A DNA stretch of 64,000 nucleotides from Candidatus Omnitrophota bacterium (GCA_041650935.1 JBAZKH010000008.1:8825-72824), one strand, 5' to 3'; counted from the first letter of the stretch, positions 4,260 through 61,900 are shown. Notes: generated by a model from the letters alone, not told the origin. Made by a program: numbers and translations.

Positions 4260-4790
4260 CTATTTTTTCGGAGGCACCGGAGGCGCCTTCGGCGGCTGTG
4301 CCGGAACAGCAGGTGGCTGCGACGGGATAGTAACGGCGGGCGGTAACGCAGGCGGCGCGGGCGGTACATTCACCGCGGCAGCCTGCCGGGAAATCTGCTC
4401 GGCCCGTCTTATGTTCTCCAATTGCTTATTAAGTTTCTCCGTCCTTATACGCACCGCTTCAGTGCCGACTCTGGAAAATAACTTTGCCAACGCTTCCGCG
4501 TCCAGGTCTTCAAGCCTCTTACCGTTATAGGTATAAATTACATTACCTGCTGCGTCGGTCTCTTTCTTAAGTCCCTGAACGAAATTAATAATTTCGCCGG
4601 CTCGGTCCAAATTTTTCTTAATGCGCCCGAGCAACTCTTCTTTCGTCAATTCCGCCCGCGTTTGAGGTTTCCGGGCCGGTGTCTTATCCGCTGCGTCAGG
4701 TTTGACGGGTTCGGCAGAAAACAAATTCGCCGCCGCTAAGGCCGCGGCTATCATTACTCCCAAGACTATACTATTTTTTATTCCATTCAT
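4260..4790 (-). CDS. secreted hypothetical protein with a coiled-coil and a proline-rich C-terminal tail
   Basis: It has a signal-peptide-like start (MNGIKNSIVLGVMIAAALAAANLFSA) and a PPAPPALPPAV...PPKAPPVPPKK tail. No family was recognised. Confidence 0.5.
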   Translation of the reverse strand: MNGIKNSIVLGVMIAAALAAANLFSAEPVKPDAADKTPARKPQTRAELTKEELLGRIKKNLDRAGEIINFVQGLKKETDAAGNVIYTYNGKRLEDLDAEALAKLFSRVGTEAVRIRTEKLNKQLENIRRAEQISRQAAAVNVPPAPPALPPAVTIPSQPPAVPAQPPKAPPVPPKK

Positions 4791-6071: not shown

Positions 6072-6094
6072 CTGCGCACCTTCTTTCCGATCTG

Positions 6095-6150
6095 TAAAAT
6101 TTGAATTTCGTATTTGTTTAGAATTTCGATATTCGTATTTCGGGTTTAAA
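6095..6150. repeat. family 2 half-element, copy F4 (reverse orientation)
   Basis: Its reverse complement reads CTTTAAACCCGAAATACGAATATCGAAATTCTAAACAAATACGAAATTCAAATTTTAC. Confidence 0.7.
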
Positions 6151-7732: not shown

Positions 7733-7752
7733 TACGCTATCTCCTTGCTTTC

Positions 7753-7881
7753 TTTAAATCCGAAATCCGAATATCGAAATTCTAAACAAATAAGAAATTC
7801 AAATTTTACAATTTTGAAACACTGGAGCTTGAAAAATTAGGATTTGTTTCGAATTTCGGATTTCGCGCTTCGGATTTATCC
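7753..7881. repeat. AT-rich palindromic intergenic element, family 2, copy F1
   Basis: The left half reads TTTAAATCCGAAATCCGAATATCGAAATTCTAAACAAATAAGAAATTCAAATTTTACAATTTTGAAA, and the inverted right half ends ...GATTTGTTTCGAATTTCGGATTT...CGGATTTATCC. Confidence 0.75.
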
Positions 7882-7886
7882 TTTTC

Positions 7887-17713: not shown

Positions 17714-18036
17714 TTTACCCTCCCGGGAGACCTGCTTTAACAGACGTTAAAAACAATTTTGCATACGCAATTCAAATGAAGCTCTCCGGCCTAAAGGCCG
17801 GAGTTTCCATTAGCCTGTTGGCGGAATTCTCCGAAGCAGAAAACCCTGTAATTCGACGTTCGTCACCGCCGCGACCTCACGCATTCATCTTTGAGCTTGA
17901 AAGCTCGGGGTTTTCTGCGAAGGAGGATAGATCTAATGTCTTCTACTGTATAACAATTATATAGCATAACGAAAGAGCTGGCAAGGCCAAATAGCTTAAT
18001 TTTTTATGCCTTAACAAAAAATTAGGAATATATCTT

Positions 18037-24949: not shown

Positions 24950-24990
24950 CCTCCAAAAGAGACCCCGCAATTGAGGTCTTTTTTGTTATC
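24950..24990. terminator. putative bidirectional intrinsic terminator
   Basis: AGACCCCGCAATTGAGGTCTTTTTTGTT has a hairpin followed by a T-run on the plus strand. On the minus strand the hairpin is followed by TCTTTTGG, downstream of the GT9 operon. Confidence 0.35.
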
Positions 24991-24994
24991 TACT

Positions 24995-25030
24995 CCGTAG
25001 TCACATCACAGTAGACTGATACGAAAAATT
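24995..25030. repeat. family 1 end fragment E plus the conserved 3' tail
   Basis: The sequence TCACATCACAGTAGACTGATACGAAAAATT matches the right inverted repeat of copy A plus its flank (TAGACTGATACGAAAAATT), and it abuts a stop codon. Confidence 0.55.
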
Positions 25031-26101
25031 TTACCTCCCTAAAATTTTCGCGGCCGCCGCAAGCACCTCATCGACCGTTACCGCCTCGAGACACTGAAAA
25101 CCTTTCGCGCAGTCATGCGCGAGACATTCTATGCAGCCGACATCCTTATGGAGCACCACATCGCGCTTGCCTGTCGGCCCCCAGCGCTGCGGCGAAAGCC
25201 CTCTGTCGTGCCTGCCGAATATCGCGATCACAGGCGTACCGACGGCGCACGCTATATGGACCGGTCCGGAATCGTTCGATATGAATAGCCGCGCGCGCCT
25301 CAATACGCTTGCCACATCCGCAACGCTCGTCCTGCCCGCGAGGTTCAGACAATTTTTCTTTAAGCGATTCGATACTCTATCGCCCAGTTCTTTATCCGCG
25401 GCGGAGGCTACAACTATTATCTTTACGCCGTATCGCTCGATCAAGGCCTGCGCGGCCCTGGCAAACTTATCGGGGCTCCACCTCTTCGAAGGGCAGCTGG
25501 CGCCGGGGTTTATTGCCACACAAAGATCGTCTTTACCGATACCCCCCTCGCGCAGCATCTCATCCACCCTCACTTCGGAATGGCCGTTCACGGGCATATA
25601 AAGAGGCTTATCTTTCGGTTCCAGGCCTGTATACCGCAATATATCGAGGGTATAATCGATCTCGTGCTTTAAGCCGTATTGCTTGGTATGCGGCAGGCGG
25701 GTGGTGAGCAAAAACCCCCATTTCCTGTTATACCCTACCGTCTCTGGGATCCCGGCCAGTGAAACCAGAAGGTGCGTCCTCTTCGTCGGGTGCAGGATAA
25801 GGGCTATGTCGAATTTTTTACGGCGTAACGAGCGGATGAAACCCAAATTTCTCAACAGCCCCTTCTCCCGCCCGTTCTTATCGTAGACTATGATTTCATC
25901 GAGGTAAGGATTGCCTTCCAGTATATCCTTGGCATATCTCCTCACCATAAAAGCGATATAGCCATCGGGGCAGACGTCGCGGACAGCCTTGATCACGGGA
26001 GTCGAGAGCAAGACATCCCCTATCCTGTCGAGCCTCACGATCAACACCCGCTTCCCTTCATGCCTTTGGATTTTGGATTTTGGATTTTGGATTTTATTCA
26101 T
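25031..26101 (-). CDS. ADP-heptose:LPS heptosyltransferase (GT9)
   Basis: It has the GT9 N-terminus (RVLIVRLDRIGDVLL) and C-terminal motifs. An alternative GTG start at about 26047 would place the GGATTTT x4 repeat in the 5' UTR. Confidence 0.8.
   Translation of the reverse strand: MNKIQNPKSKIQRHEGKRVLIVRLDRIGDVLLSTPVIKAVRDVCPDGYIAFMVRRYAKDILEGNPYLDEIIVYDKNGREKGLLRNLGFIRSLRRKKFDIALILHPTKRTHLLVSLAGIPETVGYNRKWGFLLTTRLPHTKQYGLKHEIDYTLDILRYTGLEPKDKPLYMPVNGHSEVRVDEMLREGGIGKDDLCVAINPGASCPSKRWSPDKFARAAQALIERYGVKIIVVASAADKELGDRVSNRLKKNCLNLAGRTSVADVASVLRRARLFISNDSGPVHIACAVGTPVIAIFGRHDRGLSPQRWGPTGKRDVVLHKDVGCIECLAHDCAKGFQCLEAVTVDEVLAAAAKILGR
26068..26095. repeat. heptanucleotide tandem repeat (GGATTTT) of 4 units at the 5' end of a GT9 gene
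   Basis: The sequence ggatttt x4 encodes codons 2 to 11 (KIQNPKSKIQ) if the gene starts at ATG 26101. With a GTG start at 26047 it lies in the 5' leader. Confidence 0.8.
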
Positions 26102-32070: not shown

Positions 32071-32201
32071 AAGTCATTCCGCAATAAATTTTTCGCCGTC
32101 AGTCCGGCGCTTTTTCCGGCGGCCTGCAATTGATATGTTTAAGATTTTATGTCCCGCCTTTTATTTCCCGTTTCCCTGGCCAAATTTTTCGAAAACTCAG
32201 G

Positions 32202-32335
32202 AATATTATTTGGCGATGTGGCGAGCTTAGGCGTAAAAATTGCGAGGCAGCGTCCGAGCAATTTTTCTCGAGCGTAAATTTTACATGGTTAAAATTTACG
32301 CGTCCTAAGCTCACCACATCGCCAAATAATATTAG
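32202..32335. repeat. structured intergenic element with terminal inverted repeats, family 1, copy A (complete)
   Basis: It has terminal inverted repeats (GAATATTATTTGGCGATGTGGCGAGC and GCTCACCACATCGCCAAATAATATT) and two internal hairpins, AAAAATTGC[GAGGCAGCGTCCGA]GCAATTTTT and GCGTAAATTTTA[CATGGT]TAAAATTTACGC. Confidence 0.8.
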
Positions 32336-32357
32336 ACTGATACGAAAAATTATCTCC

Positions 32358-34301: not shown

Positions 34302-35307
34302 CCAGCTGCTCCTTCCCTGAAATAATATCCATTTCTATGACAAGCGTCATCACGGGATAGTCCCCAAAAGATAACGACATCCTGCGTAATTTGACTTCGT
34401 CCTTCTCGGTCGTAAGGATAAAATCGAACGATCTCTCATCGCATCTCTTCACGATAGGTCCGGTATCGGCCTGGCTGTAATTATAGTGATCGGCGAAGAC
34501 GATCTCTTCGGCGATGTCGGCGCCCAGGCGGCGGGCAGTATCGCTAAAGTAGCCCGGATCGCCTATACTCGACAAAAGAATTACGCGCTTACCCTTAAGA
34601 AAGTTTAAAGCGAGCTCCTTCCGCGCCTTCAGGTCGTAGAGACAGACGGGCTTGTGAAGCGCTTCGAGAAAGACGAGTGCGCCATTCAGTCTCTTTAACT
34701 CATCCTTCACCTGCACCAGCGCCGGACCCGGCTTATCGACTTTTGTAAAGACTATTACCGATGCGCGCTTTACGGCCTCCACAGGCTCCCTCAATATGCC
34801 CCGAGGGAAGAGCCGGCCGTTGCCGAACGGGTTGCGGGAATCGACCAGAATTATATCGAGATTGCGCTCGAGCTCCCAGTGCTGGAAACCGTCATCCAGC
34901 ACCGCGGTATCGCTGCCATAAAGCTTTATCGCCTTGTGCGCCGACTTCGTACGGTCTTCGCCGACAAGGATGGGCGTATCGGCAAGTTTGCGCCTGAGAA
35001 GAGTCTGTTCGTCCCAGCCGTAACCGCGGATAAGAACGCTCGCCTTCTTGCCAAGCTCCTCGTCGAGCAGCTTCACCAGCCGTATCACAAATGGTGTCTT
35101 GCCGGTACCGCCCAGAGTCAGGTTCCCGACGGATATTATCTTAAGCGGCACCCGGACGGATTTGAATATATGCGTCTTGTAAGCCAACCGCCGCAGTATA
35201 AGAGCAGCCCCGTACGCAAACGACAGGATGTAGAGAAAGAATTTTATAGGCGCATATATAGCGTCGTCACGCCTATCGGTCATCAATGAATATATGAATT
35301 CACGCAT
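34261..35307 (-). CDS. lpxK: tetraacyldisaccharide 4'-kinase
   Basis: It has the LpxK P-loop (ISVGNLTLGGTGKTP). The start is probably MREFIYSLM, 2 nt after the waaA stop. Confidence 0.85.
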   Translation of the reverse strand: MREFIYSLMTDRRDDAIYAPIKFFLYILSFAYGAALILRRLAYKTHIFKSVRVPLKIISVGNLTLGGTGKTPFVIRLVKLLDEELGKKASVLIRGYGWDEQTLLRRKLADTPILVGEDRTKSAHKAIKLYGSDTAVLDDGFQHWELERNLDIILVDSRNPFGNGRLFPRGILREPVEAVKRASVIVFTKVDKPGPALVQVKDELKRLNGALVFLEALHKPVCLYDLKARKELALNFLKGKRVILLSSIGDPGYFSDTARRLGADIAEEIVFADHYNYSQADTGPIVKRCDERSFDFILTTEKDEVKLRRMSLSFGDYPVMTLVIEMDIISGKEQLVDRLRSLYSRKGA

Positions 35308-36577
35308 TGAGGAATACCGCCATTTCGCCCAAGACCCGTCCCGTAGCGCCCATATTGTCGACGACAACCTGTTTGGCGGCTCTGCCCATCTCAAGGCGCC
35401 GCTTTTCATCCGTCAGCAGGTTGTAGAGGGCGGGTACCAGGTCATCACCGCTATCGACCTGCGCGGCCGCGGATGAGGCCAGAAAGGCCTCGGCTATATC
35501 CTTAAAATTGAACATATGCTGGCCGAATATTACGGGCTTCTCATGGACAGCAGGCTCTATCGGGTTCTGTCCGCCGTGTTTTATAAGGCTGCCTCCGACG
35601 AAGACTATGGTCGCTATAGAATAGAAGTCTCCCAGGCGGCCGATGGTGTCGAGAATGTAGATCCGTCGTTCGTCGTTCGTCGTTCGTCGTTCGTCGGAGC
35701 CGGATAACCGGACCGGCTGGAAGCCGAGTTTCTTTGCGGCCTCGGCGACCTCGCCCGCTCTTTCGATATGGCGGGGAGCGATCAGCAGTTTAAGCTTCGG
35801 GAAATCTTCGATTAAATCTTTATATGCAGCGATAACGGCGCATTCTTCGCCCGGATGCGTCGACCCTGCCACTATAAGCTCGTCTCCCGTAGCCATCCCC
35901 AGCTCTTTTTTTAATACGTCGCCGCTTATCCTGCCCGCCTTGACCCGGATATCGAATTTCATATTCCCGGCGACCTTTACTCTTTCGGGCCTGGCGCCAA
36001 GAGCTATTATCCTGTCCGCGTCCATCTTCGACTGCATGCAAAGAACGTTAATGTTCCGCAATATCTTCCTTAAGAACCGGCTTACCATCTCGTACTTCCC
36101 AAAAGACCTGTCCGATATCCTGCCGTTGATGAGTATGGCCGGTATGGCGCGGCGTTCTATCTCTTTTAAAAAATTAGGCCATATCTCAGTCTCGACCATG
36201 ATGTACATATTAGGCCTCACTATACCTATAACTTTCTTCACTATAAATGAAAAATCGAGCGGAAAATATATCACAACGGCATCATCCGCAAATAACTTCT
36301 TTGCCAGGTCGCCGCCCGTCTTAGTTATCGTCGAAAAAACTATCGGCCGCGAGGGGAACTTCTCGCGCATAAGCGGGATAAGGCTCCTGCATAACGCAAC
36401 CTCCCCTACGCTCACCGCCTGAATCCATATCGCGCCGCGCGCCTTCGCAAGCGCCGCGCGCTTCGCCCTGCCGTATACGCCGAACCGCTCGAGAAAATCC
36501 CTGTGCAGTTTGCCTTTGAATATCAGCGTCGGTAGATAGAAGATCGAGAATAACGCGAATCCTATGTCGTACAACAT
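35300..36577 (-). CDS. waaA: 3-deoxy-D-manno-octulosonic acid transferase
   Basis: The 425-aa protein is of the KdtA family (GT30). It contains the GTCGTTC heptamer repeat. Confidence 0.85.
   Translation of the reverse strand: MLYDIGFALFSIFYLPTLIFKGKLHRDFLERFGVYGRAKRAALAKARGAIWIQAVSVGEVALCRSLIPLMREKFPSRPIVFSTITKTGGDLAKKLFADDAVVIYFPLDFSFIVKKVIGIVRPNMYIMVETEIWPNFLKEIERRAIPAILINGRISDRSFGKYEMVSRFLRKILRNINVLCMQSKMDADRIIALGARPERVKVAGNMKFDIRVKAGRISGDVLKKELGMATGDELIVAGSTHPGEECAVIAAYKDLIEDFPKLKLLIAPRHIERAGEVAEAAKKLGFQPVRLSGSDERRTTNDERRIYILDTIGRLGDFYSIATIVFVGGSLIKHGGQNPIEPAVHEKPVIFGQHMFNFKDIAEAFLASSAAAQVDSGDDLVPALYNLLTDEKRRLEMGRAAKQVVVDNMGATGRVLGEMAVFLNA
35665..35696. repeat. heptanucleotide tandem repeat (GTCGTTC) of about 4.6 units inside the waaA coding sequence
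   Basis: The sequence is gtcgttc gtcgttc gtcgttc gtcgttc gtcg. In the reading frame it encodes DERRTTNDERR. Confidence 0.85.
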
Positions 36578-36854
36578 CTTACTCCTAAATTTTTACGGGT
36601 CCTGCCGCAAATTTATGGGTCCTGTCCTCGGTCGCCTTTCGGTGCTCCTTCGGCCTCGCGGGTTTACAATATCGTGAGAAACTAGGCGCGTATCTAAGTG
36701 CCGCCAGAATTGCTTACGATATTTTAAGTCTTAAGCAGTGTCGCCCTGACAATGGCAATTCTAAGCGGCGGCACCCCATCCGCTTCGGCCTTGTGCGCAC
36801 CTCAAGGCTGGACCTCGGCCACCCATAAATTTGCCTAGCCTAGTTATCCATAAC

Positions 36855-36880
36855 GTAGCTACCGTTTAAACGTCAGCTAC
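36855..36880. repeat. GTAG-N6-TTTAAA-N6-CTAC palindrome P1, at the 3' end of the HNH gene
   Basis: The sequence is GTAGCTACCGTTTAAACGTCAGCTAC. Confidence 0.6.
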
Positions 36881-36883
36881 TTA

Positions 36884-37555
36884 TTACTTGCTTGCTTTGA
36901 AATGTTTTTCTAGCGGTATTTCATCAAGTATTTCGGATAACAAATTCCGTTTTTTCCTATTGCAATCAAAGCAAAGCAATCGTAAGTTATCAACAGATGT
37001 CGTACCGCCTTTCGAAAATGGAATAAGATGATCAAATTCCATCTTATTGTCAGGTACGGGCTTAAAACATTTTTGACAAATCTGCCCATCTCTTCGAACC
37101 ACTTTCAACATAACATCCCTAGGAATCTCTCGTGATAGACGCCTTATTTCTTTTGTTTCTGTGAATGGTTCGGCGTTAAAATATACGGGACAAATATGTC
37201 CAAAGATTCTACAACTAATTTCTTTTAATATTCCAGAGATTTCAACAGGGTAATCACTCGTCTTAAAATCCAAAATACATTTAATAAAAAATTTCTTACG
37301 ATTTTTATCTAATTTTTTACCACCTTGAAGTCTTCCCGTAGAAATACACTCTTTTAAGTATTCATTATGCTCAATAGCCTCACTACGTATAGGAGGAATT
37401 ATAGGGAATTGTTCAACTAAAGGTCCATAAGGACAGTATTTTATTTCCCAGCACGGTTTACAAACTAGCGATTGTTTATATCTTACTATTTTAACAATCT
37501 CTGTCGAGGGTGTTTGTATGGAGAATCCCAGAACTTTTTTTAGACACTTTTCCAT
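36884..37555 (-). CDS. HNH endonuclease with a Cys-rich N-terminal region (orphan, in an AT-rich islet)
   Basis: It has a C-terminal HNH motif (DHLIPFSKGGTTSVDNLRLLCFDCNRKK). The gene is about 35% GC, against a neighbourhood well above 50%. Confidence 0.7.
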   Translation of the reverse strand: MEKCLKKVLGFSIQTPSTEIVKIVRYKQSLVCKPCWEIKYCPYGPLVEQFPIIPPIRSEAIEHNEYLKECISTGRLQGGKKLDKNRKKFFIKCILDFKTSDYPVEISGILKEISCRIFGHICPVYFNAEPFTETKEIRRLSREIPRDVMLKVVRRDGQICQKCFKPVPDNKMEFDHLIPFSKGGTTSVDNLRLLCFDCNRKKRNLLSEILDEIPLEKHFKASK

Positions 37556-37610
37556 ATTTTACGAACGCTTTCCACTCTTGTTTTCCCAGTAAAATTTTTC
37601 GCATCCGTTG

Positions 37611-37742
37611 AAATGTGATGTGGCGATGTGGTGAGCAGGGCGTTAAAAGTTCGAGGCAGCGTACGAGAACTTTTATCGAGCGAAATTTTCACATGGCTGA
37701 AAATTTCGCGTCCTAAGCGAGCCACATTGACACAGCACATTT
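37611..37742. repeat. structured intergenic element, family 1, copy B
   Basis: It has the same architecture as copy A, with hairpins TAAAAGTTC[GAGGCAGCGTACGA]GAACTTTTA and GCGAAATTTTCA[CATGGC]TGAAAATTTCGC, and compensatory stem changes relative to copy A. Confidence 0.8.
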
Positions 37743-37772
37743 ACTGCTACATCGAAAAATTTTACGCACTCC

Positions 37773-38645
37773 TTACGCCCGCGGATGAGCTTTGTCGTAT
37801 ACCGTCTTCAGGCGGTCCATCGTCACGTGCGTATATATCTGCGTCGTCGACAAATTCGCGTGCCCCAGAAGCTCCTGAACGCTGCGCAAGTCCGCGCCGC
37901 GGTCGAGCATATGCGTCGCAAACGAATGGCGCAAGCTATGCGGCGATATGTGCTCCGACATACTGCATAGTTTTATATACTTATCGAGTATGCGCCGCAC
38001 ACTCCTGTCCCAGAGGCGCGTCCCGTTCTTCCCGAGAAAGACCGCTTCCTTATCCTTAACCTTCATCCCTTCGCGTTTATCGATATACCGCCTGAGCGCC
38101 GAAACGGCGGGTGAACCTATCGGCACCATCCGCTCCTTCGAGCCCTTACCGAAGACCTTTATGACCTCGCCGATCAGATCGACATTCCTCATATTCAGCC
38201 CTACAAGCTCGCTCACCCGGATGCCGCCCGAGTATATTGTTTCGAGGATAGCCGTGTCCCTGAGGGCGAAGACGTCATCCCCTCCGGGGCATTGGAGCAG
38301 TCTCGCCACCGCTTTTTCGTCCAGGACCACGGGCAGCCTCTTATCCAGTTTGGGAGTAGAGACGGCGGTAATCGGATTCGCCTTGATATGCCCTTCGCGG
38401 TACAGGAACCTGAAGAAGCTCCGTAAACTCGCGAGTTTGCGCGCTATCGTCCTCTTCGCGTAGTTCCGCCCGCGCAATTCCGCAAGAAATTTGCGCAATA
38501 GAAGATGGTCGATCGCCGAGACGTCCTTATCGCCGAGAAACCGGCTGAAAGATTCCAGATCTATCCGGTAATTCAGGATAGTATGCGGCGACGAATTTCT
38601 CTCGACATCGAGATAATTTATGAACTTTTCGATAAATCTCTGCAT
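37773..38645 (-). CDS. xerC: tyrosine site-specific recombinase XerC/XerD family
   Basis: It has the catalytic region (HSLRHSFATHMLDRGADLRSVQELLGHANLSTTQIYTHV). It lies immediately downstream of topA, as in dprA-topA-codV neighbourhoods. Confidence 0.8.
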   Translation of the reverse strand: MQRFIEKFINYLDVERNSSPHTILNYRIDLESFSRFLGDKDVSAIDHLLLRKFLAELRGRNYAKRTIARKLASLRSFFRFLYREGHIKANPITAVSTPKLDKRLPVVLDEKAVARLLQCPGGDDVFALRDTAILETIYSGGIRVSELVGLNMRNVDLIGEVIKVFGKGSKERMVPIGSPAVSALRRYIDKREGMKVKDKEAVFLGKNGTRLWDRSVRRILDKYIKLCSMSEHISPHSLRHSFATHMLDRGADLRSVQELLGHANLSTTQIYTHVTMDRLKTVYDKAHPRA

Positions 38646-41584: not shown

Positions 41585-41632
41585 ATCTTTCTGTATCGAA
41601 ATTTATTAGTCCTGTCCCCTTCTATCATCTCC

Positions 41633-41700
41633 CGAGCGCAATTTTCACATGGCTGAAAATTACGCATCCCTGCGAGATGCCAACCCCGAGAGGGGATTCC
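41633..41700. repeat. family 1 partial copy D plus an adjacent GC-rich hairpin
   Basis: The partial copy reads GCGCAATTTTCACATGGCTGAAAATTACGC and is followed by CCCCGAGAGGGGATTCCCCTCGGG. Confidence 0.6.
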
Positions 41701-41717
41701 CCTCGGGATCGAAAAAA

Positions 41718-42035
41718 TTATTTCCTCTTTATGCCGATAAGGCCGAACAGGGTCCAACTGCCTATTATTATAAGCGCCGTCAGGCTGACCGCATTCAGAA
41801 CTATGATCTTCCGCGTTATAGTCTCTTTTTCGCGCCTGAATATATCGAGTATATAATCTTCTTCCGATGAGTTTCTCAGCGCGTTACCGGACTTTATCTT
41901 CGTCATCATCATCGTCGTCGCCTTATCGTTAAGCGACATCGCTTTCCTGATGAGCGGCATACCGATAACGCCGTAATTGAATGCGAGAATAAGTACGAGC
42001 GTCGCCCCGATCCAGATTCTGGCTTTTAAAGTCAT
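41718..42035 (-). CDS. small two-TM membrane protein, hypothetical
   Basis: The ORF has two hydrophobic helices and no recognisable family. The start is uncertain. Confidence 0.4.
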   Translation of the reverse strand: MTLKARIWIGATLVLILAFNYGVIGMPLIRKAMSLNDKATTMMMTKIKSGNALRNSSEEDYILDIFRREKETITRKIIVLNAVSLTALIIIGSWTLFGLIGIKRK

Positions 42036-42111
42036 ATATAGCCTTTCCGCAATTTCAAATTTCAAATACTGCAAATACTACCAGGGAAGGTTGGGATTTG
42101 GAATTTTGAAT

Positions 42112-44709: not shown

Positions 44710-44714
44710 AGATT

Positions 44715-44807
44715 ATTAAATCCGAAATTCGAATATCGAAATTCTAAACAAATACGAAATCCTAAATTCCAATTTGGAAAATTCAGATTTCGCGATTCGG
44801 ATTTATC
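44715..44807. repeat. family 2, copy F2
   Basis: It reads TTAAATCCGAAATTCGAATATCGAAATTCTAAACAAATACGAAATCCTAAATTCCAATTTGGAAAATTCAGATTTCGCGATTCGGATTTATCC. Confidence 0.75.
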
Positions 44808-44821
44808 CTCCCTTTTCCAGT

Positions 44822-44848
44822 TTGTAGGGCAGGTTTAAACCTGCCCTA
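44822..44848. repeat. GTAG-N6-TTTAAA-N6-CTAC palindrome P2, overlapping the aroE stop codon
   Basis: The sequence GTAGGGCAGGTTTAAACCTGCCCTAC is a perfect palindrome. Confidence 0.65.
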
Positions 44849-47272: not shown

Positions 47273-47305
47273 AGTCTCACCTCAAAATAAATTTTTCGCT
47301 GTAAC

Positions 47306-47440
47306 AATAATATGATATGTCAATGTGGTTCGTTCAGGACGCACAATTTTCAGCCATGTGAAAATTGTGCTCCGTAAAAGTTCTCGTACGCTGCCTCGAA
47401 CTTTTAAGGCCTGCGCTCACCACATCGCCATATCACATTC
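47306..47440. repeat. structured intergenic element, family 1, copy C (core inverted)
   Basis: It is the reverse complement of copy B over about 125 bp. Its second hairpin is GCACAATTTTCA[GCCATG]TGAAAATTGTGC. Confidence 0.8.
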
Positions 47441-47457
47441 CTGACTTGTAGAAAAAT

Positions 47458-48450
47458 TTATTTTTCCATCCAAGGCATCATCTTCCTCAAGTCCGAGCCG
47501 ACCTTCTCGATCTGGTGAGCGCACTCTTTGTCCAGTATCGCTTTATAGTTGGGCCTGCCCGCCTCATTCTCCTTGATCCATTCGCGCGCGAACTTACCCG
47601 ACTTTATCTCTTTGAGAATCTTCTGCATCACTTTACGCGTCCTGTCGGTTATTATCTTCTTGCCGCGGGTGATATCGCCGTAACACGCGGTATTCGAAAC
47701 CCTGCATCTCATCCCGCTTATGCCGTACTGCTGGATAAGGTCCGTGATGAGTTTGAGCTCATGCAGCACCTCGAAGTACGCGATCTCCGGCTGGTAACCG
47801 GCCGCGATCAGCGTATCGAATCCCGCCTTGATAAGTTCCGACGCGCCGCCGCAGAGGACCGCCTGTTCGCCGAAAAGATCTGTCTCCGTCTCCTCGTCGA
47901 ATGTCGTCTCGATAACGCCTGCTCTCGTCCCGCCGATGCCTTTGGCATACGCAAGCGCTATATTCCGCGCGTTGCCGGTAGCATCCTGATAGACCGCTAC
48001 CAGGCACGGGACACCTTTACCTTCCTCGTACATCCTGCGCACAAGCGCGCCCGGGCCTTTTGGAGCGACCATGATGACGTCGATCTTCTTCGAAGGTTTA
48101 ATCTGTTTGAATCTTATATTGAACCCGTGCGAAAAGAGGAGCGCCTTGCCCTTCGTCATATTTTCGGCGATCTCGTCCTTGTAGACCTTCGCCTGGACAT
48201 GGTCCTCAGTCAGCACCTGGATAATATCAGCCTGCGCCGAGGCCTCTTTAGCGGAAACAGGGTTAAAGCCGTCCTTCTTCGCCTGCTCATAATTTTTCGT
48301 ACCGGGAAGTTCGCTCACGATAACACTGCACCCCGAGTCGCGTAAATTCAGGCTCTGGCTCCGGCCCTGTATGCCGTATCCGATAACGGCGATCTTTTTG
48401 CCCTTCAACAAATTCAAATCCGCATCCTTTTCATAATAGATCTTTGCCAT
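47458..48450 (-). CDS. ilvC: ketol-acid reductoisomerase
   Basis: It has the class I KARI motif (GYGIQG). Confidence 0.9.
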
Positions 48451-48475
48451 TTCTTTTAACCCCTTTCTTTGTTTT

Positions 48476-48580
48476 GACTTTAAATTCGAAACTCTAAATC
48501 CGAAATCCTAAACAAATACCAATTTTCAAAATTCGAATTTGTGATTTGTTTCGAATTTCGATATTTGAATTTCGTGCTTA
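48476..48580. repeat. family 2, copy F3
   Basis: It contains CTAAATCCGAAATCCTAAACAAATACCAATTTTCAAAATTCGAATTTGTGATTTGTTTCGAATTTCGATATTTGAATTTCG. Confidence 0.7.
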
Positions 48581-52909: not shown

Positions 52910-55900
52910 TTACGCAGCCCTTAGAAGAACTTCCTGTAAATGCTTAAGGCGGATTTGTTCGCCGGTATCGGCCGGTATGATAGGTTTGAGGATAAAGTTC
53001 AGCTTATTTATGAAGTCGACGGGGTTCTCTTTAAGCTCTCTTAATGGGATATACCTGCTTGCGCAACGCTGGGTCAAAAGACTATATAACCTGTAGAAAG
53101 ATTCGTTGTCATCGTTCAGGTAGGCCCTGCCCACCCCTATCAATCCTTCCAGATTGGTCAGGTTCCCCGCCTTAACCCTCTGACCATCAAGATTGATATA
53201 AATAACCCTGGCCTTTAATCTGTTAAGTTCTTTTATCTGGGCTTCGTTCAAACGCTCCAGGGGCAGGATCGTAACGGTGTTGTCGTCTATATTCTCACGG
53301 GCAAAAGATACAAGTTCGTCTATATTATCCTCGAAACTCACCCTGTCTTTTGTCAGCTTCGATATCTCCGTAAGGAATGGCTCCTGGCCGGGCGCGGCAT
53401 ACCCCGACCATGCTTTAATCGTGTAATCCTTTTCCGAGAGGCTCGCCTTTCCATATAGATAATCGACTATATGAAGCTTGATTGCTTCTCCGGCAAACGG
53501 GCATATCGCCGGAGGGATATTGCCCTGGCGCAATAACGGCTTATCATCTCCTTTGCCGGTCTTCAGTTTTACGCTGATCGCCACGTTAATTAAATTACGG
53601 GCATGTTCCCGCGTCTTATTATTAAGGTCTATCATCATATCGGAAAATTTATACTTTCCGTTTACATTCACAAATATACCGAGTTCCACCAAAGGCTTGA
53701 CCGCCTGATTATAAACCCTGGCCGCAAAATGTCGCTTGCCGCGGGGCTCGGTCATGCCGGGGCAGATATCGCTTTTAATGCTGAATCCTTCGCCCAGCGC
53801 CTTCTCAAGCAGCCCCCCGGGCCCGTTATCATATTTTATCATCATCAAAAACTCCGCCGGGTTACCCATTAGCCATCGGGAAACCGCGGGATCTTGAGTT
53901 GCGGAATCTTTCGCGGGATCTTGCCGGGTTATGTCATGTGGTCTTCCCGGAATCTTACCCGGCAAGGGCACGCTGCCCGGAATCTTACCCGGCAAAGGCA
54001 TGAGTTGCGGAATCTTGCCGGGTAAGGTCATGTGGTCTTCCCGGATCTTACCCGGCAAGGGCATGTCACCCGGCGCAGGCGCATCTGTGGACTTTTCACC
54101 AAAACGATCTAAGCGTATATACATTTCATCGATCAAACCCTCAGACTCTTTGATATCGACTGCGCCGGGATACATTGCCGCAAACTGCCGGTGAAATTTC
54201 TGAGCATCGCCGGTCGACGCCGGATGAGTGCGGTAATATTTCCCATCTCCGTTTTTCTTCATCTCTAAAATAGCCGCGCTCATAAGTGAATAGGCAACCC
54301 ACCGGTATTGTCTTCTTACATACATACCGTTCGACTCAAAATGATCGCCAATTAGTTTATAATCATAAAGCCCGACCGGCTCATCACCGTAATATCCGAT
54401 GACCGCAATATATTCTCCGATATCCCATTCCCGCTTTGTTTCGCTCGGCTTCTGCGCAGCCTCATGCGAAAGAGCGGCAAACCAGGCATTGCATTCTTCG
54501 ATCAACGAATCCAACCGCACGTCAGATTTTTGTTCGTCTGACAGGTTTTTATACAAGCGGAATGTTACTGATGGAAGAACCTTTTTAGAGGTATCCGAGA
54601 TTAGTCCATTCTGCTGCGCCTGCCCACCGCTCGCAAAATACGGTTCGCCGCCGGCTTGCTTGATTACAGACATCTGACGCTCATCTGCCAGCGTCTTGCC
54701 GGGTACCGGCATGAGTGTAGCTTCGGCATCCGCGGAATCTTTCGCGGAATCTTGCTGTGCGGAATCTTGCCGGGTAAGGTCATGTTGCCTTCCCGGAATC
54801 TTACCCGGCAAGGGCACGCTGCCCGGAATCTTGCCGGGTAAGGTCATGTTGTCTTCCCGGATCTTACCCGGCAAGGGCATGTTGGTATCCAGAGCGTCAC
54901 GTTTTGCGTCCCCATCTTCCTGCGGGCATTCTCCTGCAAGCGTTGCTAACCTTGCTTCAAAAGAAGATTCACTTAAGTTTTCCAATAGATAGGTCAGCTG
55001 TAAATTGTTCGGATGCCGCACAAGCTCTTTTCTGATTGCCGTTTCGACTTCGCGAGGAAATATCTTAGCGATCTCGACAAGGGCCGAATACGCACAACTG
55101 CTCGCATGATCTGGAGGATAACCTACGGCAAATATTAAATCATCTATCGCAGATCTGCCGAGAGCTATTATCTGCTTTTTCAGGCCTAATCTCTTATCTG
55201 CATCAGCATTATCCAACTTACTAAGTAGATCTTCCGTTTTCAGGGACGTGCCACTTTGGGACATTTCGCTATCCGCGTCGGCCGCACCTTCATCTAGCGC
55301 AACCTTTGTCCCATCGGATTGGACGGCACCCACTGCAGAAATCAGCTCCCATTTATACTCGTTTTTCCTTACTTCCTTAAAATCAAATGCCGCGGCAATT
55401 TTGCCGATCCATCCTCCATCCGAAGTATCTATAGCTTCCACAGATCGCAATTCCGGCAATGCTCTTAACCACGATAAAGCAGCAGCAAATAGCTTTGTGC
55501 CTACGCCCGCCTTTTGATAAGATCCCCGCACCGTCATTTCATCTATAAACCCTTCCCCCGCGTCATCTGTATGGCTTACTATCGCATATCCTATAACCTC
55601 ATTATTATTTCTCGCCACAAAAACTTTCCCCGGCCTCATCCACTTGCCATCCATTATCGACCTAAGGTAACGATTAGAAGATTCTGCGTAGGAAGGATGC
55701 ATATTACCGCCCGTAAGATAACCTTCTTCCCAAATTTTAGTAATTGCACCTATGTCGCCCGGATTTGCCGGTTCTATAATAGGCTCTGCGGGTCCTAGGG
55801 ACGGCTCTACCGGTCGCGCGCCTTGCTGTACGGCTGGGATGGCACCTTCTGGACCGTCCTTGTATTCCGCACCGCTCGCAAAATGTGGCTGGCCGCCGGC

Positions 55901-58900
55901 TTGCTTGATTACAGACATCTGACGCTCATCTGCCAGCGTCTTGCCGGGTACCGGCATGAGTGTAGCTTCGGCATCCGCGGAATCTTTCGCGGAATCTTGC
56001 TGTGCGGAATCTTGCCGGGTAAGGTCATGTTGCCTTCCCGGAATCTTACCCGGCAAGGGCATGTCACCCGGCGCGTCCATTTTTGACACGTCCCCTTTGT
56101 CAGCAACCCCGTCGTTTCTAACCTGGTTAGATTTGTCAGGTTGCGCGGGTTGCTGCGCCATCCTCTTATTTCTCTCGTTAAGATATTTCCACCGTTTAAG
56201 CATTTCGGTATCGACATGGGGGATAATTCCATTTATACTATACCGTATATCAGGATAGGGGCGGAATATGTCCGATTTCACTCTAAAAATATCAAACTTA
56301 GAGATGCTTTTCAAAACATCGGGCGAGGCATTTTTTATAAAAAATTTCAGGCTCATGCCCGAATCGCCATATAACATAAGCATTGCCAGGGACACAAATG
56401 TCATCCCATAACCATGCTGCCGGGGCAGATTTGGATATATTTGGTTAATTTTCACAACGCAGCCTTGTGGTGTTATTATTCTAAGCGGACAAGATAATCT
56501 TCCGCCGTCCCGGAATTTATTTTTATCAGAATTATGTACAAAAACGGCAAACTTTGTATTCTTATCATATTTAATCCTATCTCTTTCATCTTCCGATAGA
56601 GGCAAATCGTCATCATCTTCCCATCTCGCAAAACTTATATAATAACCCTGGGCAAAAAATTCTTCTATCCTTTGATTTAAGAGTGCTCTTTGTACTAGAT
56701 ACAAATCTGAAGGTGAAACTGTCCCTATTCCTGAGATTAAACCTGTCCCCCGGGCCGGATATAACAGCGGTTCCGAACTACGCGGAATGGTTTCGCCTTC
56801 GTCCTTCGGCGCTACGATGCTCTGCTTAGGCTGATTGGACCTGGCATCCGTACGATCACAACGGCTACCCACAATTCCCGAATAACGATATTCCTTAAGA
56901 GGCTCGGCGCTAAAGTATTTCTTCATAACATATGGAATAAAATGGAATCCGTCCGGCGCATACACCTCTTCGGTGGCAATCGCTTCTACACTCCATCCCG
57001 TATAATTCCGCTCGAGCGTATTTGCCAAATTCCCGAAAAATTTCGATACCAGACGGGATCCCTGCATACCTTCATCGATGGAAAGCCTGTCGATTTCCAT
57101 CATCTCCATGTCGGCATGCACCCTGAGAGCAAATACGAACTTAAGGCTTTCGTTAGCCGGGCGATAATGCCATATAAAATCTGCCCTGGGGTCAATGCGT
57201 TCGGCTTTGTCTATGACTATCTTATAGTCGATGACAGCGCCTCCCTCCGAAACGGTGGAAATGGCCGCTGCTACATACTCACCGGCAGGCACTTCGGCCA
57301 ATGCCTTCTTAAACTCCGGCAGACCCTGGCCTATCTTTTCCTGGATGCTGATGATTCGCACCTCTCTGCCATCGTTAAGATCGCTAAATCGTTTTAACAA
57401 CTCTGTTCCGGCAAGAAGCGATGTCAGGTTTATGCCTTCCTCCGGAGGCACGATGCTCTGCTTCCGCTGGTTAAACCTGGCACTCGACTGGCTCCGGCCA
57501 TGGCGGCCGCCTCCGAACTGCCTCTGCCACGGCTCCGGCGAAACATTCCGCGCACCCGCTATCTCTAAGTCCAGCGGTTCGATTTCCGGAGTAACGCCTC
57601 GTTGTACGGGCGGTGTCGCAAGAGTCTTCTGCGCAGGCGCATCGGCCGCATTTGTAGCAACATCCTTATTTCTAACCTGGTTAGATTCGCCGGGTTGCGC
57701 GGGTTGACCCGGAACATTGCCGGGCAAGGGCATGTCGGCATCCGCGGAATCTTGCCGGGTTATGTCATGCTGTCTTCCCGAAATCTTACCCGGCAAGGGC
57801 ATGTCACCCGGCGCGTCCCTTTTTGACACGTCCCCGCTAACTATGCGCTCTCCTTGCTCAAAAACGCAACCTGTTTCAGCGAATGATTTTAACAATGATC
57901 TGGTTATCTTGTTTTTTGTCTTTGGAATCAAATATTTCGGAATAGGCCTAGTCTCGGAGTATGTAAAATTGATAGCAACGGGTTCTATTCCAAAGTTAAA
58001 AAGCATGCCAACAAGTTCAACAACCCTGCGATTAATAGCCGGATCGGTAACCTCCCCCTCCTCAATAGGCGCGATAGCGTCATAGTCGATCGTAATTACC
58101 GCCGGCCCGGTTACCCTGCCCCTTAACGCTTTTATCGAATCAAAGATATTGGTTTTGCCGTAACATTCTATATCTTCCGGATTGGGGCGATATAACAGGG
58201 TCGTTCCGTCATCAACAGCCCTGACCCATATTCGGCGACCCGTGCTAAATCCGCCTTTCCAAAGCCTGCGCATCCAGTTACCGCAACTCAAAAGCTTAAC
58301 ACTCGGAGCATTTGCAGAATCCGGATGATGGTCAATATTTATTATAGTGGTATTTTTATCGGCAATGCCTTGTTTCTGCAGTTTCTTAACCCATCCAAAC
58401 ATCTCACGGTGGTTATTACACACCTTTACCGGTATAGTAACATCACCACGCCTTAACCACTTGACCTTCCCAAATTCTTTCACCTGCATAGCGGAATCTT
58501 TCGCGGAATCTTGCCGGGTTATGTCATGTGGTCTTTCCGGAATCTTGCCCGGCAAAGGCATGAGTTGCGGAATCTTGCCGGGTAAGGTCATGTTGTCTTC
58601 CCGGATCTTACCCGGCAAGGGCATGTCACCCGGCGCGTCCATTTTTGGCACGTCCCCATCACCCCTTTTATTCCCGCTGTTCTGCCTCTTCCATGCCTCG
58701 AGAGTATCTTTATCTACGGGAGGAAGCGCGCAATGGATATCATGCGTATTATCAAAATCCTCCCGGCTGTTGATCTCGATAGCATCCATTTCGGATAAAC
58801 TCTGGTACAATTTCGGCCTTGCGCAATAGATCGAAAATCTCTGTCTCACGTTCTCTTTGCCGGTAAGCAGGAATAACGCTACAGCCAGTGCGATTCGGCC

Positions 58901-61900
58901 GAATTGTTTGCCGTCCCGCAGCATTTGCGGAGAAAAACCTTTCAGCACTACGCTTCCGTCGCGCCTTACAAGCAGGTCAAAGCTTCCTTCCCAAGAGGTA
59001 TCCCTGAAATATTTCCCCGCTTCCGACTTTGACGATCTATAGTGCCTGACATATACCGGATTCCATACTCCGGGCTTCTGGATAGCGCCCCCTTCCGTTT
59101 CGATATAATAGCCGCTGCCTAAAAATGCCTCGACCTTGCTTCGCAGTGGTACAGGCGGAGGTGCCGCCGTTTTGCGCTCGTCAACAGGGGATAAGCTCAA
59201 AATACCTCTGCGGTTTTTTCCTTTCCGTCTATCTTTGACACTTCGCGCTTCAGATATAACCTTTACCCTATCGATCGCAAGATTGACAAAATCATTATGG
59301 TTAGCATAAAGGATAGGCCTGTTTCCATGAAAATCGACCATTAGCCACCTGGCGTTTTCGACATATTTCCCTGCCGGCCGCGGTTCCGGCAATTTCTGAT
59401 ACTCTTTCCTGGTAAGATGAATGTGCCTCACCACAGTTTCTATCCATGCATTGTCCGTATTCCTGGCGTCATCTACATACCCGCGGTATAATTCGACCGC
59501 CTTACCGGCATCGATCTTTATGCCGGTCTTCTTCTCGAGTTGTGCGGAGAGCGCCGCTACTATATCATTTTCAGCCGCCATCATTCCTCCGGGTATCGCC
59601 CATTGGCCGCAGTCGGCGCGTTTTATAGAGAGCATCTGCACCCTGCCGGGCTCGCCGTATGTCACGATCAGATCGACTGCAAAATTCGCACCCCATTTCC
59701 CGAGGACACCCCGGCCTCTAAGACCCGTCCTCCCGCGCGGATTGAGCGGACGTTTTTTATCATCCTCACGCACCGGCCCTTCATAGCTGGTAAGCACGCG
59801 CCCTATCTTAGTAATATCCTCAGGGTCGGCGTAACCGTCCGGATTACGGGTCACGTCATTCGCTAACACTTCCCTATCTACATAATATTCAGGGTTATAT
59901 TCCTTAAACGGGAAATCCCACGACACCGCATGCGAAGGGACAGGATAGCGGAAAGGATAGATAAAAGGGTTTTCACGCGCTTCCTTTAGCATTAATGCGG
60001 CAGACCTGCGTACATCTTTAAGGAATTCCCTGCGCCCGGTGTCGCGTTCCAACGTATCAAGCACGCCAAGTGTGCAATTTACCTCTCTCACAATATATGC
60101 AAGCGTTTCGTTCGCCAATCGCCTCATGTAACGCACCTGGTATTCCTGGTCCTCGGCGCTGACATGCCGGCATACGGGCATGCTGGATCCCGTAAGGTAT
60201 CTGCAAAGATTTTCGATAAACATGTACGGATCTCCGCGCCATAGTTCCATCAGGACCAGCTTCCGCTGGAGATGGACCGGCAGGACCCCTGTCTCGCTAT
60301 GTTGAACGGCAATTACGCACTCTTCGGTCCGCGAAAAACAGTCTTTAGCCTCCTGGGGACTATTATTTATATTGAACCAGATGCCGAGCAGTTCAAATAT
60401 TTCGGCAGTTTCTCTAAAAGCAGCCTGCGCATTAACATCTCCGGGCGGATAGGCGGACGGGTATCGCTTCCTTAATTCATCATAGCTTCTTTTAGTTTCC
60501 GCATATTTTTTGTTCAATATCATACGAAGCGCTCCGCTTCTTCCAAGCATGCCAACAACTTTTTTAGCCCGCCGGGGCGGGATAATCTCTTCTATCGCCT
60601 TAACCCTGTTCAGGTCGCCGGCATCAAGCCCCAGGTCTTTCTTCAGTGTCTCAAATAGGCGGGCGCCGGGAACTTCACCTCTATGCTCTAGCGAATACGG
60701 CTTGACGTAACTCCAGAGTTCCGATATCCTTTCTTCCCGCGTCTGTTTTCTATGCGCAGCTTCAGGTTTTTTCGTTACAGAGCCGGAAAGTATTGCGCTG
60801 GGGGCGTCGAGCGGCTTCACACTATGAGACGCGTCTTTTTTGGCCTCACTTTTCGCGGAATCCTGCTGCGCGGAATCTTTCGCGGAATCTTGCCGGGTTA
60901 TGTCATGTGGTCTTTCCGAGATATTACCAGGCAAGGGCACGGTGCCCGGAATCTTGCCGGGTAAGGTCATGTTGTCTTCCCGGATCTTACCCGGCAAGGG
61001 CATGTCACCCGGCGTGTCCATTTTTGGCACGTCCTTCTCATCGCTGCCATCACGTTTATAATGCACCACGAGCGGCGCCCAAAACGCGAACATGTTGTAA
61101 AAACCGTGGGTAATAATATTCGCTAGAAGGTGTATCCTGAAGGCGTATACGGCACTACCCGCGGCCGCCGCCAGCATGATTATATTGGGAGCGTCAAAAT
61201 AGATAAAAACAAGATACGGTATTCCCGCCAGGACAGCGGGCATCGATAACCATATAACACATATCCCCGTAAAACGGGTCAGCCAGTGATACCATCTCTC
61301 GTTCTTATGTTTTTTAAAAAGGCTCGGTAGATTGAAGATATTGGCCAATTCATCGCACTCGACAACCGCCGCGTACCAGCTAACCAGGAACCTCTTGGTT
61401 AGCTTCGAGCGATCTTGCCATCTCCAGGATGGGTAAGTCCTAAAGAATCGTACGACACGCCTTAGAGGAGATTGTAAAACCGGGCTGGCAGCGCCTTTCG
61501 CTTTAATCAAACCTTCTTGAGTTCTTCTTTCTTCGTCATACCTGCCGGGATGGAGAACTATCTCCGTAAGGTCCCGCATAAACTTCCGGCATTCCAGGCG
61601 GTTCGATACGCCATCCAATTTATAGTTATCGAAATGTTTCAATATTTCGGGCTCTGGGACACTGTCGCCTATGAGAGCCTCCAGGCCTTCTACAAAATGC
61701 TTCTCGAACGATTTCCTGCCGTCACCGCCATTACGCGACAAGATAAGATTACTTATAAGCTGGCAGCGTCTATATGGGTCGCTGCTGCTGCGCGCGATCT
61801 TAAGGTAAACATTCATAAGGCCTTCATTCTTTATATCGTAGTCTATATCCGAGATCCGTTCGTAGAGACTGAATGCCATCCTTAGGGTAAACGGGTCGTC

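Follow-up and report, generated by a model that had tools for sequence, protein, structure and literature searches.

A nested palindromic repeat family of Candidatus Omnitrophota and its copy at the variable xerC-waaA junction

Introduction

A 64,000-nucleotide (nt) stretch of DNA from a Candidatus Omnitrophota bacterium (GCA_041650935.1, JBAZKH010000008.1:8825-72824; here called the window) carries a palindromic sequence at positions 37611 to 37742, between the recombinase gene xerC and an AT-rich HNH endonuclease gene. A preliminary description made from the sequence alone listed this palindrome as copy B of a repeat, family 1, and proposed that it may mark a recombination hotspot at which the HNH gene was acquired. 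What kind of element is it, why does it lie where it does, and has it anything to do with the arrival of its neighbor? We report here that copy B is a member of an undescribed, clade-specific, noncoding, multicopy repeat family of Candidatus Omnitrophota. The explanation that we favor, at a probability of roughly 60%, is that family 1 is a duplicative DNA element akin to miniature inverted-repeat transposable elements (MITEs) or repetitive extragenic palindromic (REP) sequences, that it settles or is retained only directly after stop codons, and that the HNH gene is a separate, later arrival.

Results

Copy B is a nested palindrome with inverted termini

The bases at 37611 to 37742 match those quoted in the preliminary description (132 nt) and form a nested palindrome in which an outer stem surrounds two inner hairpins. 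The arms of the outer stem, AAATGTGATGTGGCGATGTGG and CCACATTGACACAGCACATTT (21 nt each), make 18 Watson-Crick pairs and one G·T pair and leave two mismatches; within them, an inner stem (37633-37642 with 37710-37721) encloses hairpins 1 and 2. Folded as RNA, the plus strand reaches −60.6 kcal/mol (z = −6.8; 0 of 200 shuffles equal) and the minus strand −45.8 kcal/mol (z = −4.7; no shuffle equal). The full element exceeds the flagged span: it extends from 37589 to 37765 (177 nt), with the inverted termini GTAAAATTTTTCG and CGAAAAATTTTAC at its ends and a spacer of about 10 nt between each terminus and the adjacent arm (Table 1). The same inverted termini flank nearly all family-1 copies. A small open reading frame (ORF) beginning at the ATG in the loop of hairpin 2 was considered and dropped; neither its 7-codon frame nor its length is conserved among copies.

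Copy B had been described as sharing the architecture of copy A, with stems that differ by compensatory changes. Comparison of both hairpin stems bears this out: hairpin 1 is built from AAAAATTGC/GCAATTTTT in copy A and from AAAAGTTC/GAACTTTT in copy B, and hairpin 2 is built from GCGTAAATTTTA/TAAAATTTACGC and GCGAAATTTTCA/TGAAAATTTCGC, respectively. Repeat finding and motif searches detected three full family-1 copies (A, B, and C) and two partial ones (D and E) in the window, where the core motifs occur three times versus 0.06 expected by chance. Copies A and C carry the canonical loops.

Family 1 occurs in six Omnitrophota genomes

A scan of one genome per GTDB species, using a pattern built from the two loops, returned 57 stretches. 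About 45 of these lie in six Candidatus Omnitrophota metagenome-assembled genomes (MAGs), namely fen_1320, fen_1322, STD1_81 (about 25 copies), STD1_87, RA.bin12, and SO_2016_LW1_45; the remaining 12 or so lie in GC-rich genomes of other phyla and were judged by eye to be chance matches. The total is about 48 family-1 copies across the six genomes. The unit is about 175 nt long, contains no conserved ORF, and ends in (T)AAAATTTTTCG ... CGAAAAATTT(TA). Searched with Rfam 15, the whole window gave 0 matches at the gathering score, and positions 36500 to 37800 gave only chance, snoRNA-level matches at E ≤ 10. A plasmid DNA search with the element returned no match, and a full-text literature search found no description of repeats in Omnitrophota or Omnitrophica.

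The paired structure of the family is supported by extensive covariation. The 47 aligned cores have a mean column identity of 81%, and their RNAalifold consensus contains 31 pairs, 17 of them with changes on both sides. Core cells fall into standard pairs in 96.5% of cases versus 85.2% in shuffles, and cells changed on both sides number 138 versus 39.7 expected (0 of 500 shuffles as high). When the partners were slid by 1 to 3 columns, pairing fell to 24 to 54%. The inner closing stem (helix 1) shows compensatory changes at 8 of 8 pairs across 45 distinct copies. The stem of hairpin 1 occurs as GTTC/GAAC, TTTC/GAAA, TTGC/GCAA, or CTTGC/GCAAG around an unchanged loop, and helix 3, which forms hairpin 2, is 99% paired with 6 of 12 pairs compensatory (CA/TG, GG/CC, A/T, and G/C beside the loop). 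The outer stem, compared over 21 copies, is 88% paired, and both partners have changed at 7 of its 20 pairs. The terminal repeats of copy B had been called partly degenerate; the mismatches are real, but they are not decay, as the same two recur in 14 of 21 and 17 of 21 copies. The apparent degeneracy of the outer stem is a trait of the family. In many copies, the mismatched distal bases of the 3′ arm can pair instead with the spacer that follows, ahead of the right terminus. Across copies, the alternative hairpin so formed reaches 69% pairing and is register-specific; in copy B itself it is weak.

The family is modular. An alternative outer arm (GGAATTCCC...GGGATTCGTGCCGAGC) is used by some copies, in others the two arm types are nested, and an additional GC hairpin is present in some. 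A covariance model built from the alignment added a few copies with other loops, including CCGG..CCGG replacing GAGG..CCGA and ACGCTG replacing CATGG (one copy each). Its weak matches near HNH homologues (loci L063 to L065, 24.5 bits; loci are cited by L number throughout) were set aside: they come from a 38%-GC lineage and represent a GC-rich pair of hairpins distinct from family 1.

Family 1 shows signs of turnover

Copy B shares 94% identity with a family member at an unrelated locus of MAG STD1_81 (L014) but only 72% with the copy that lies at the orthologous site 3′ of xerC in that MAG (L030); the L030 copy has the other arm type and the other variant of hairpin 1. Subtypes within the family are genome specific. 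The copy between ilvC and leuA in RA.bin12 (L053) has the orientation opposite to that of copy C in the window. At the lpxL/GT junction, which copy A occupies in the window, the two genes overlap by ATGA in L070, an unrelated palindrome is present in L071, and family 1 and family 3 stand in tandem in L009. Elsewhere, two copies lie head to head and have one terminus in common (L006), and a truncated copy adjoins a full one (L076). Several contigs terminate within the element, and a short-read assembly of the same xerC stops 68 nt beyond the gene, inside the element. Closely similar termini are carried by at least two other structured interiors (families 2 and 3). In most copies, a TA stands on either side of the A/T core of the termini, where it is indistinguishable from the inverted repeat itself. 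Taken together, the subtypes, the pattern of presence and absence, the tandem and nested arrays, and the contig breaks strongly suggest a mobile or duplicative repeat of the MITE or REP kind.

Copies are anchored at the stop codon of the upstream gene

Family-1 copies are almost exclusively intergenic, and 31 of them lie between codirectional genes, 25 in antisense and 6 in sense relative to the displayed orientation. The element end near the upstream gene stands at a nearly fixed distance from that gene's stop codon, whereas the spacing on the side of the downstream gene is variable. The upstream TAA stop provides the first three bases of the terminus TAAAATTTTTCG in 24 of about 38 usable cases. 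Within the window, the terminus overlaps the stop in copies C, D, and E, and copy B begins 8 nt past the xerC stop. When the two do not overlap, a Shine-Dalgarno-like GGAG often lies between stop and terminus, and a new ribosome-binding site follows the far terminus; this layout gives the impression that the element entered between an old ribosome-binding site and the start codon belonging to it. Copies occur inside operons (e.g., ilvC-leuA), and approximately 80% have no foreign neighbor or cargo and occupy tight gaps between housekeeping genes such as ilvC/leuA and lpxL/GT. A promoter and terminator scan around the element placed no site at the element, and its counts were not above those in shuffles.

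Such precise placement, combined with the strong covariation in all three helices and the kept loops, raises the question of whether the element is primarily a functional structured RNA. It could be a cis-acting module of the 3′ untranslated region or intercistronic space, or a small RNA transcribed from its own strand. Each copy would then serve its neighbor gene, in termination or read-through, mRNA decay, or translation termination or coupling, with loops that bind protein or RNA. The 25:6 orientation bias fits this explanation, as do the two mutually exclusive folds at one end, which recall riboswitches and attenuators, and in 38 of 39 copies the displayed strand has a better fold than its complement. 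However, the copies owe this asymmetry to loops and purine-purine mismatches inherited in common, so that the 38 cases do not count as independent; moreover, the strand that folds better usually runs antisense to the genes on either side, and a consensus promoter was not found. The stems contain G·U pairs (about 19 cells) and A·C mismatches (about 14) at similar frequency, and wobble intermediates are rare compared with double changes. The stems therefore carry no signature of a single functional RNA strand. A single orthologous junction can hold the element in either orientation; selfish repeats typically show the truncation, nesting, tandem arrangement, and contig breaks seen here; and no Rfam family matches. 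We consider a primary function as RNA unlikely, at around one chance in a handful.

Copies of family 1 and neighboring features in the window

The coordinates of copy B, of the other family-1 copies, and of the genes around them are collected in Table 1. The terminus of copy C, TAAATTTTTC, begins with the ilvC stop codon, and the junction orthologous to that of remnant E holds a full composite copy in L025. A second short remnant, which ends in GGCGAAAAATTT, lies at 32071 to 32180, on the downstream side of copy A and ahead of the GT4-GT9 gene; this is the position of a full family-3 element in L009, and the remnant resembles a decayed tandem partner. The junction upstream of dprA (41585-42074), which holds truncated copy D in the window, is variable among relatives: the genes overlap and the junction is empty in L021 and L068, and it contains GIY-YIG in L070, GalT in L071, a DUF4139 protein in L069, and about 1 kb in L030. 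The dprA-topA-xerC block has variable junctions on both flanks.

Table 1. Features of the window, with positions counted from its first base
Feature	Position	Strand	Remarks
Full family-1 element, copy B, with termini and spacers	37589-37765	+	Same layout in about 48 copies
Left terminus GTAAAATTTTTCG	37589-37601	+	Exact match; conserved at ends of family-1, -2, and -3 elements
Outer stem, 5′ arm AAATGTGATGTGGCGATGTGG	37611-37631	+	
Inner closing stem, 5′ strand GAGCAGGGCG	37633-37642	+	Pairs with 37710-37721; consensus helix 1
Hairpin 1, 14-nt loop GAGGCAGCGTACGA	37643-37676	+	Stem varies, loop kept
Hairpin 2, loop CATGGC	37680-37709	+	Consensus helix 3
Outer stem, 3′ arm CCACATTGACACAGCACATTT	37722-37742	+	
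Right terminus CGAAAAATTTTAC	37753-37765	+	8 nt from xerC stop codon (37773-37775)
xerC, housekeeping tyrosine recombinase upstream of element	37773-38645	-	Pfam Phage_integrase and SAM_1
HNH endonuclease gene, single-gene AT-rich islet	36884-37555	-	Pfam HNH, E = 7.5e-14; 34% GC vs. 51% for window
Family-2 repeat, other border of HNH islet, directly upstream of waaA ribosome-binding site	36587-36832	-	75-92% identical to fen_1320 loci
waaA (Kdo transferase), conserved downstream neighbor of xerC	35300-36577	-	Pfam Glycos_transf_N; synteny
Family-1 copy A	32179-32354 (core 32202-32333)	+	Between lpxL-ELM1 fusion gene and GT4-GT9 gene; covariance model 98.8 bits
Family-1 copy C	47288-47460 (core 47309-47439)	-	Fills ilvC/leuA gap; covariance model 109.2 bits
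Truncated family-1 copy D	41585-41717 (core ~41633-41669)	+	Hairpin 2, type-B 3′ arm, and termini only; 25.8 bits, model positions 51-81
Remnant E, solo right end CACATCACAGTAGACTGATACGAAAAATTTTAC	24990-25034	+	Abuts stop codon of gene 25031-26101

The xerC-waaA junction is an insertion hotspot

The genes of the window all lie on the minus strand and are housekeeping genes (ilvD-B-N-C-leuA, aro, lipopolysaccharide/Kdo/lipid A, and dprA-topA-xerC), with the AT-rich HNH gene as the exception. In gene direction, the order is xerC, copy B, the HNH gene, a 306-nt noncoding stretch, and waaA; both the coordinates and the GC contents (34% versus 51%) agree with the earlier placement of copy B between xerC and an AT-rich HNH gene. 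XerC passes the TIGR02224 cutoff (356 versus 335 bits) and fails the integron-integrase model (130 versus 265). For XerC orthologues of 44 to 89% identity, waaA is the next gene, so that the adjacency is conserved down to 44% identity.

We measured the xerC-waaA gap in about 45 relatives from assemblies and JGI metagenomes, wherever both genes were present. The junction is a genuine insertion hotspot. The empty site that the preliminary description predicted, with waaA directly after xerC, exists; most often the junction is empty, and the gap is 3 to 60 nt in many lineages (L073, L078, L082, L083, L131, L096, L106, L070, and others). Palindromes of several kinds occupy the gap elsewhere: family 1 (L075 and L088), a family-1-like sequence (L085), family 3 (L071, L110, and L087), family-2-like sequences (L091, L084, and L092), and unrelated hairpins (L093, L095, L107, L114, L077, and L090). 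Genomes whose XerC is at least 80% identical all have an insert of 1 to 2.4 kb, each different. The junction contains family 1, HNH, and family 2 in the window; family 1, an NYN gene, a 234-amino-acid (aa) orphan, and a family-2-like repeat in L030; family 1, a 272-aa orphan, and an inverted family 1 in L021, L068, and L072; family 3, a 67-aa ORF, and GIY-YIG in L067; and a serpin with no element in L069. In L076 (74% XerC identity), an insert of about 1.1 kb starts with family-1 copies.

The HNH gene at this junction is confined to the window among the relatives measured, where it appears to have been inserted exactly between the family-1 and family-2 repeats, together with a short hairpin of its own. 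Its protein family has more than 1,300 homologues at 50 to 60% identity, several of them from MAGs that NCBI names as Patescibacteria group or Omnitrophota, and the closest relative (P0002) is 80% identical. Homologues at L059 to L066 lie in defense-like islets with Mrr, HicA, PDDEXK, or transposase fragments, or beside a tRNA gene, and have no family-1 elements. A phage protein search with HNH matched only the nuclease domain of about 100 residues, at 34 to 37% identity; a phage origin is therefore not shown. At one of these loci (L063, positions 4310-4700; GCA_043807505.1, a 38%-GC Omnitrophota MAG), what appears by eye to be a tRNA gene is split by a group I intron that scores above threshold (RF00028, 65.7 bits). 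This putative tRNA gene lies directly upstream of an islet comprising HTH, the HNH homologue (55% identical to that of the window), PDDEXK_5, and a transposase fragment.

The variability of the junction and the different AT-rich cargo of close relatives sustain the part of the preliminary description that concerned a hotspot. A causal role of the element does not follow; about 80% of copies are free of cargo. Most of what the preliminary description had named as counting against its proposal was observed: HNH genes without the element are found elsewhere, no other xerC/waaA junction has HNH, most elements have no insertion beside them, and the serpin entered L069 without an element. The element predates the HNH gene, occurs far more widely, and can be separated from it. 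The hotspot is thus a property of the junction, and the statement that the element marks a recombination hotspot describes at best a weak statistical association.

In a more concrete form of the proposal in the preliminary description, the element is a recombination site (attC-like or Xer-like, recognized as folded single-stranded DNA) or a portable block of homology that captures cassettes such as HNH. AT-rich ORFs (<40% GC) are enriched on the 5′ side of the element only (8 of 43 versus 6 of 266 other ORFs; Fisher P = 1e-4), compared with 0 of 45 on the 3′ side, which by construction holds the conserved upstream gene. The enrichment is weaker than this P value implies because three of the eight cases are one orthologous locus. 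Cargo lies between two elements in L021 and L068 and between family-1 and family-2 repeats in the window and L030, and it differs among close relatives; in addition, the conserved outer-stem mismatches recall the extrahelical bases of attC, and a tyrosine recombinase gene is adjacent. However, that recombinase is no integron integrase but an ordinary XerC in conserved synteny, and the aligned copies inspected show neither GTTRRRY-type core sites nor cassette arrays. Elements occur in both orientations and within operons, mostly cargo-free, and both the L069 serpin and the HNH homologues do without them. A role in cassette capture is, in our estimate, a good deal less than probable, with odds of only about one in eight. 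The narrower identification with integrons and attC was rejected: XerC fails the integron-integrase model, only single genes are found, and most copies are free of cassettes.

Other repeat families in the window and its relatives

The family-2 copy of the window is bracketed by AAATTTTTACGGGT ... ACCCGTAAAAATTT, is GC-rich, looks strongly structured, and has no Rfam match. Its relatives are found at three fen_1320 loci (L018, L020, and L057), with family-2-like copies in L030, L084, L091, and L092. The termini of family 2, AAATTT(TT)A(C/T)GGGT ... ACCC(G/A)TAAA(AA)TTT, resemble those of family 1, and in fen_1320 (L020 and L057) a family-1 and a family-2 repeat are separated by 12 nt that contain no gene. 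Family 3 is about 230 nt long and has the motifs GGCGG..ACTTTTG..CCGCC and ATCGAAATTTT, a CATGCC hairpin, and termini AAATTTTTCG / CGAAAAATTT as in family 1. It was seen in L071 (5875-6115), L067 (4110-4350), L009 (4180-4400), L029 (957-1070), L058 (2303-2407), and L045 (4165-4262), as well as in the xerC/waaA gaps of L110 and L087, sometimes in tandem with family 1.

The shared termini allow a more far-reaching proposal, that AAATTTTT ... AAAAATTT clamps with different interiors (families 1 to 3) constitute a hitherto unrecognized system of intergenic punctuation in Omnitrophota. Its modules, anchored at stop codons, bearing conserved loops, and acting as RNA or single-stranded DNA, would be recognized by a dedicated factor of the host or of a mobile element, and pairs of them would delimit a replaceable gene slot that captures foreign single-gene cassettes such as HNH, NYN, and GIY-YIG. 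If true, this would be a cassette-capture system unrelated to integrons, in which one machinery both spreads modules and captures genes; we think it very improbable. An ordinary intrinsic terminator, or a chance palindrome without family identity, can be practically dismissed: the position downstream of a gene and the A/T runs flanking the hairpin would suit it, but the scan for terminators was blank at the element, CGAAAAATTTTAC rather than a direct T-run follows the stem, the fold has a z score of −6.8, copies lie inside operons such as ilvC-leuA, and the census of about 48 related copies with common loops, arms, and termini in six genomes refutes it.

Further repeats were noted in passing. 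Another intergenic family, composed of AT-rich palindromes (AAATCCGAAATTCGAATATCGAAATTCTAAACAAATACGAAATTC...; repeat families D6, D10, and I3 to I9), occurs at 6072-6145, 7733-7886, 44710-44845, and 48451-48577 and likewise starts right at stop codons. A 323-nt intergenic region (17714-18036) has a motif of about 70 nt (GGGTTTTCTGCTTCGGAG..TTCCGCC..CAACAGGC.AATGGAAACTCCGG.CTTTAG.CCGGAGAGCTTCATTT) in common with the xerC/waaA gap of L092 and has no Rfam match at E ≤ 1. A giant ORF on the minus strand (52910-63994, running off the window end; >3,694 aa), whose sole Pfam match is a GNAT acetyltransferase domain, contains 22 clustered copies of the 29-nt unit CCCGGAATCTTACCCGGCAAGGGCATGTC with a spacing of 30 to 34 nt, in addition to repeats of 92 to 202 nt, all in coding sequence.

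Discussion

On the reading that we prefer, a MITE- or REP-like family-1 element settles at, or survives only at, the position right after a stop codon. Elements between codirectional genes would, on the simplest expectation, be transcribed together with the upstream gene, because they lie inside operons and directly after stop codons, and a very stable three-way hairpin would form in the transcript just past the stop. By analogy with REP, ERIC, and Correia sequences, this hairpin may serve as a 3′-end or intercistronic stabilizer or as a signal for processing or ribosome stalling; a role of the element at the RNA level is plausible on that analogy. The HNH gene would be a foreign, AT-rich, single-gene islet that landed between a preexisting copy B and the family-2 repeat. 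The xerC/waaA junction is tight in its ancestral state and has taken in palindromic elements and unrelated small genes repeatedly in this clade, and the repeats would, speculatively, at most have offered permissive spacing or portable homology for insertions.

Several observations weigh against a mobile DNA element confined to stop codons. Where the terminus is clear of a stop codon, about half of the copies lack the TA flanks; the junctions compared gave no clean pair of filled and empty sites with alignable flanks to define the insertion boundaries or a target-site duplication; and the 64-kb window, the only sequence searched for such genes, encodes no transposase or REP-associated tyrosine transposase (RAYT). 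Both loops are much better kept than the stems, and the loop invariance of the 47 aligned copies is itself partly circular, since the search pattern demanded those loops. The statistics on orientation and gaps use heuristic ORF calls, and the stop-codon anchoring could equally reflect selection for an RNA function instead of an insertion preference.

The family has consequences for work on uncultivated Omnitrophota. It explains assembly breaks at such sites in their genomes, and with its covariance model it provides a marker for a clade within the phylum. Annotators are warned that long conserved hairpins after stop codons in these genomes are repeats and not unique regulatory RNAs. Stop-codon anchoring together with common termini makes family 1 a tractable case for asking whether repeats are kept for a function in mRNA or are tolerated at the only harmless insertion point. 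In addition, the xerC/waaA junction offers a natural series (empty, element only, and element plus cargo) in which to study the entry of single foreign genes into a compact core genome.

Family 1 has the attributes of a MITE in that it is a short, noncoding unit with inverted termini whose dispersed copies are polymorphic at orthologous sites. The MITE type considered was IS630/Tc1-mariner, in which the duplicated target is TA. The Correia repeats (CREE/NEMIS) of Neisseria, ERIC/IRU of enterobacteria, and RUP of Streptococcus pneumoniae are TA-flanked, MITE-like repeats of 100 to 200 nt, with tens to hundreds of copies between genes. Like them, family 1 is noncoding, of that size class, and often TA flanked, has terminal inverted repeats and many intergenic copies, and shows presence and absence at orthologous sites, subfamilies, and truncated copies. 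Those repeats are known to be cotranscribed into long hairpins, which for family 1 is only predicted. In contrast to them, family 1 has no known cognate transposase, its TA duplication is only suggestive, its three-way interior has covarying hairpins and kept loops, its terminus often overlaps the upstream stop, and several unrelated interiors share its termini.

The REP, BIME, and REPIN units of Escherichia coli and Pseudomonas are 20 to 40 nt long and have a conserved 5′ GTAG-type tetranucleotide that is recognized by RAYT; roles of REP elements in mRNA stabilization and ribosome stalling have been proposed. Family 1 resembles these units in being extragenic, in its position just after stop codons and within operons, and in its orientation bias, mosaic clusters, and conserved hairpin imperfections. 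It differs in being a single unit of about 175 nt with a three-helix core; there is no GTAG-type motif at the hairpin feet in the family-1 alignments and no RAYT gene in the window. BOX elements of S. pneumoniae are likewise modular, intergenic, and multicopy, with swappable modules around a core and a stable predicted structure, but they have no sequence relationship to family 1 and are linear (boxA-boxB-boxC), not nested palindromes, and not anchored at stop codons.

Integron attC sites, finally, are imperfect palindromes of 60 to 140 nt that have conserved unpaired bases, adjoin promoterless foreign genes, and act as folded single strands. Family 1 is also an imperfect palindrome with conserved unpaired bases and sometimes adjoins foreign genes. 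Unlike attC, it has no integron integrase beside it, no R/L core consensus, and no cassette array, and most copies lie between housekeeping genes; the ends of the aligned copies inspected have no GTTRRRY/RYYYAAC pair, the termini being AAAATTTTTCG / CGAAAAATTTT. We conclude that family 1 belongs to a known kind of bacterial repeat but is new as a family, unusual in its anchoring at stop codons and in termini that are common to several structured interiors.

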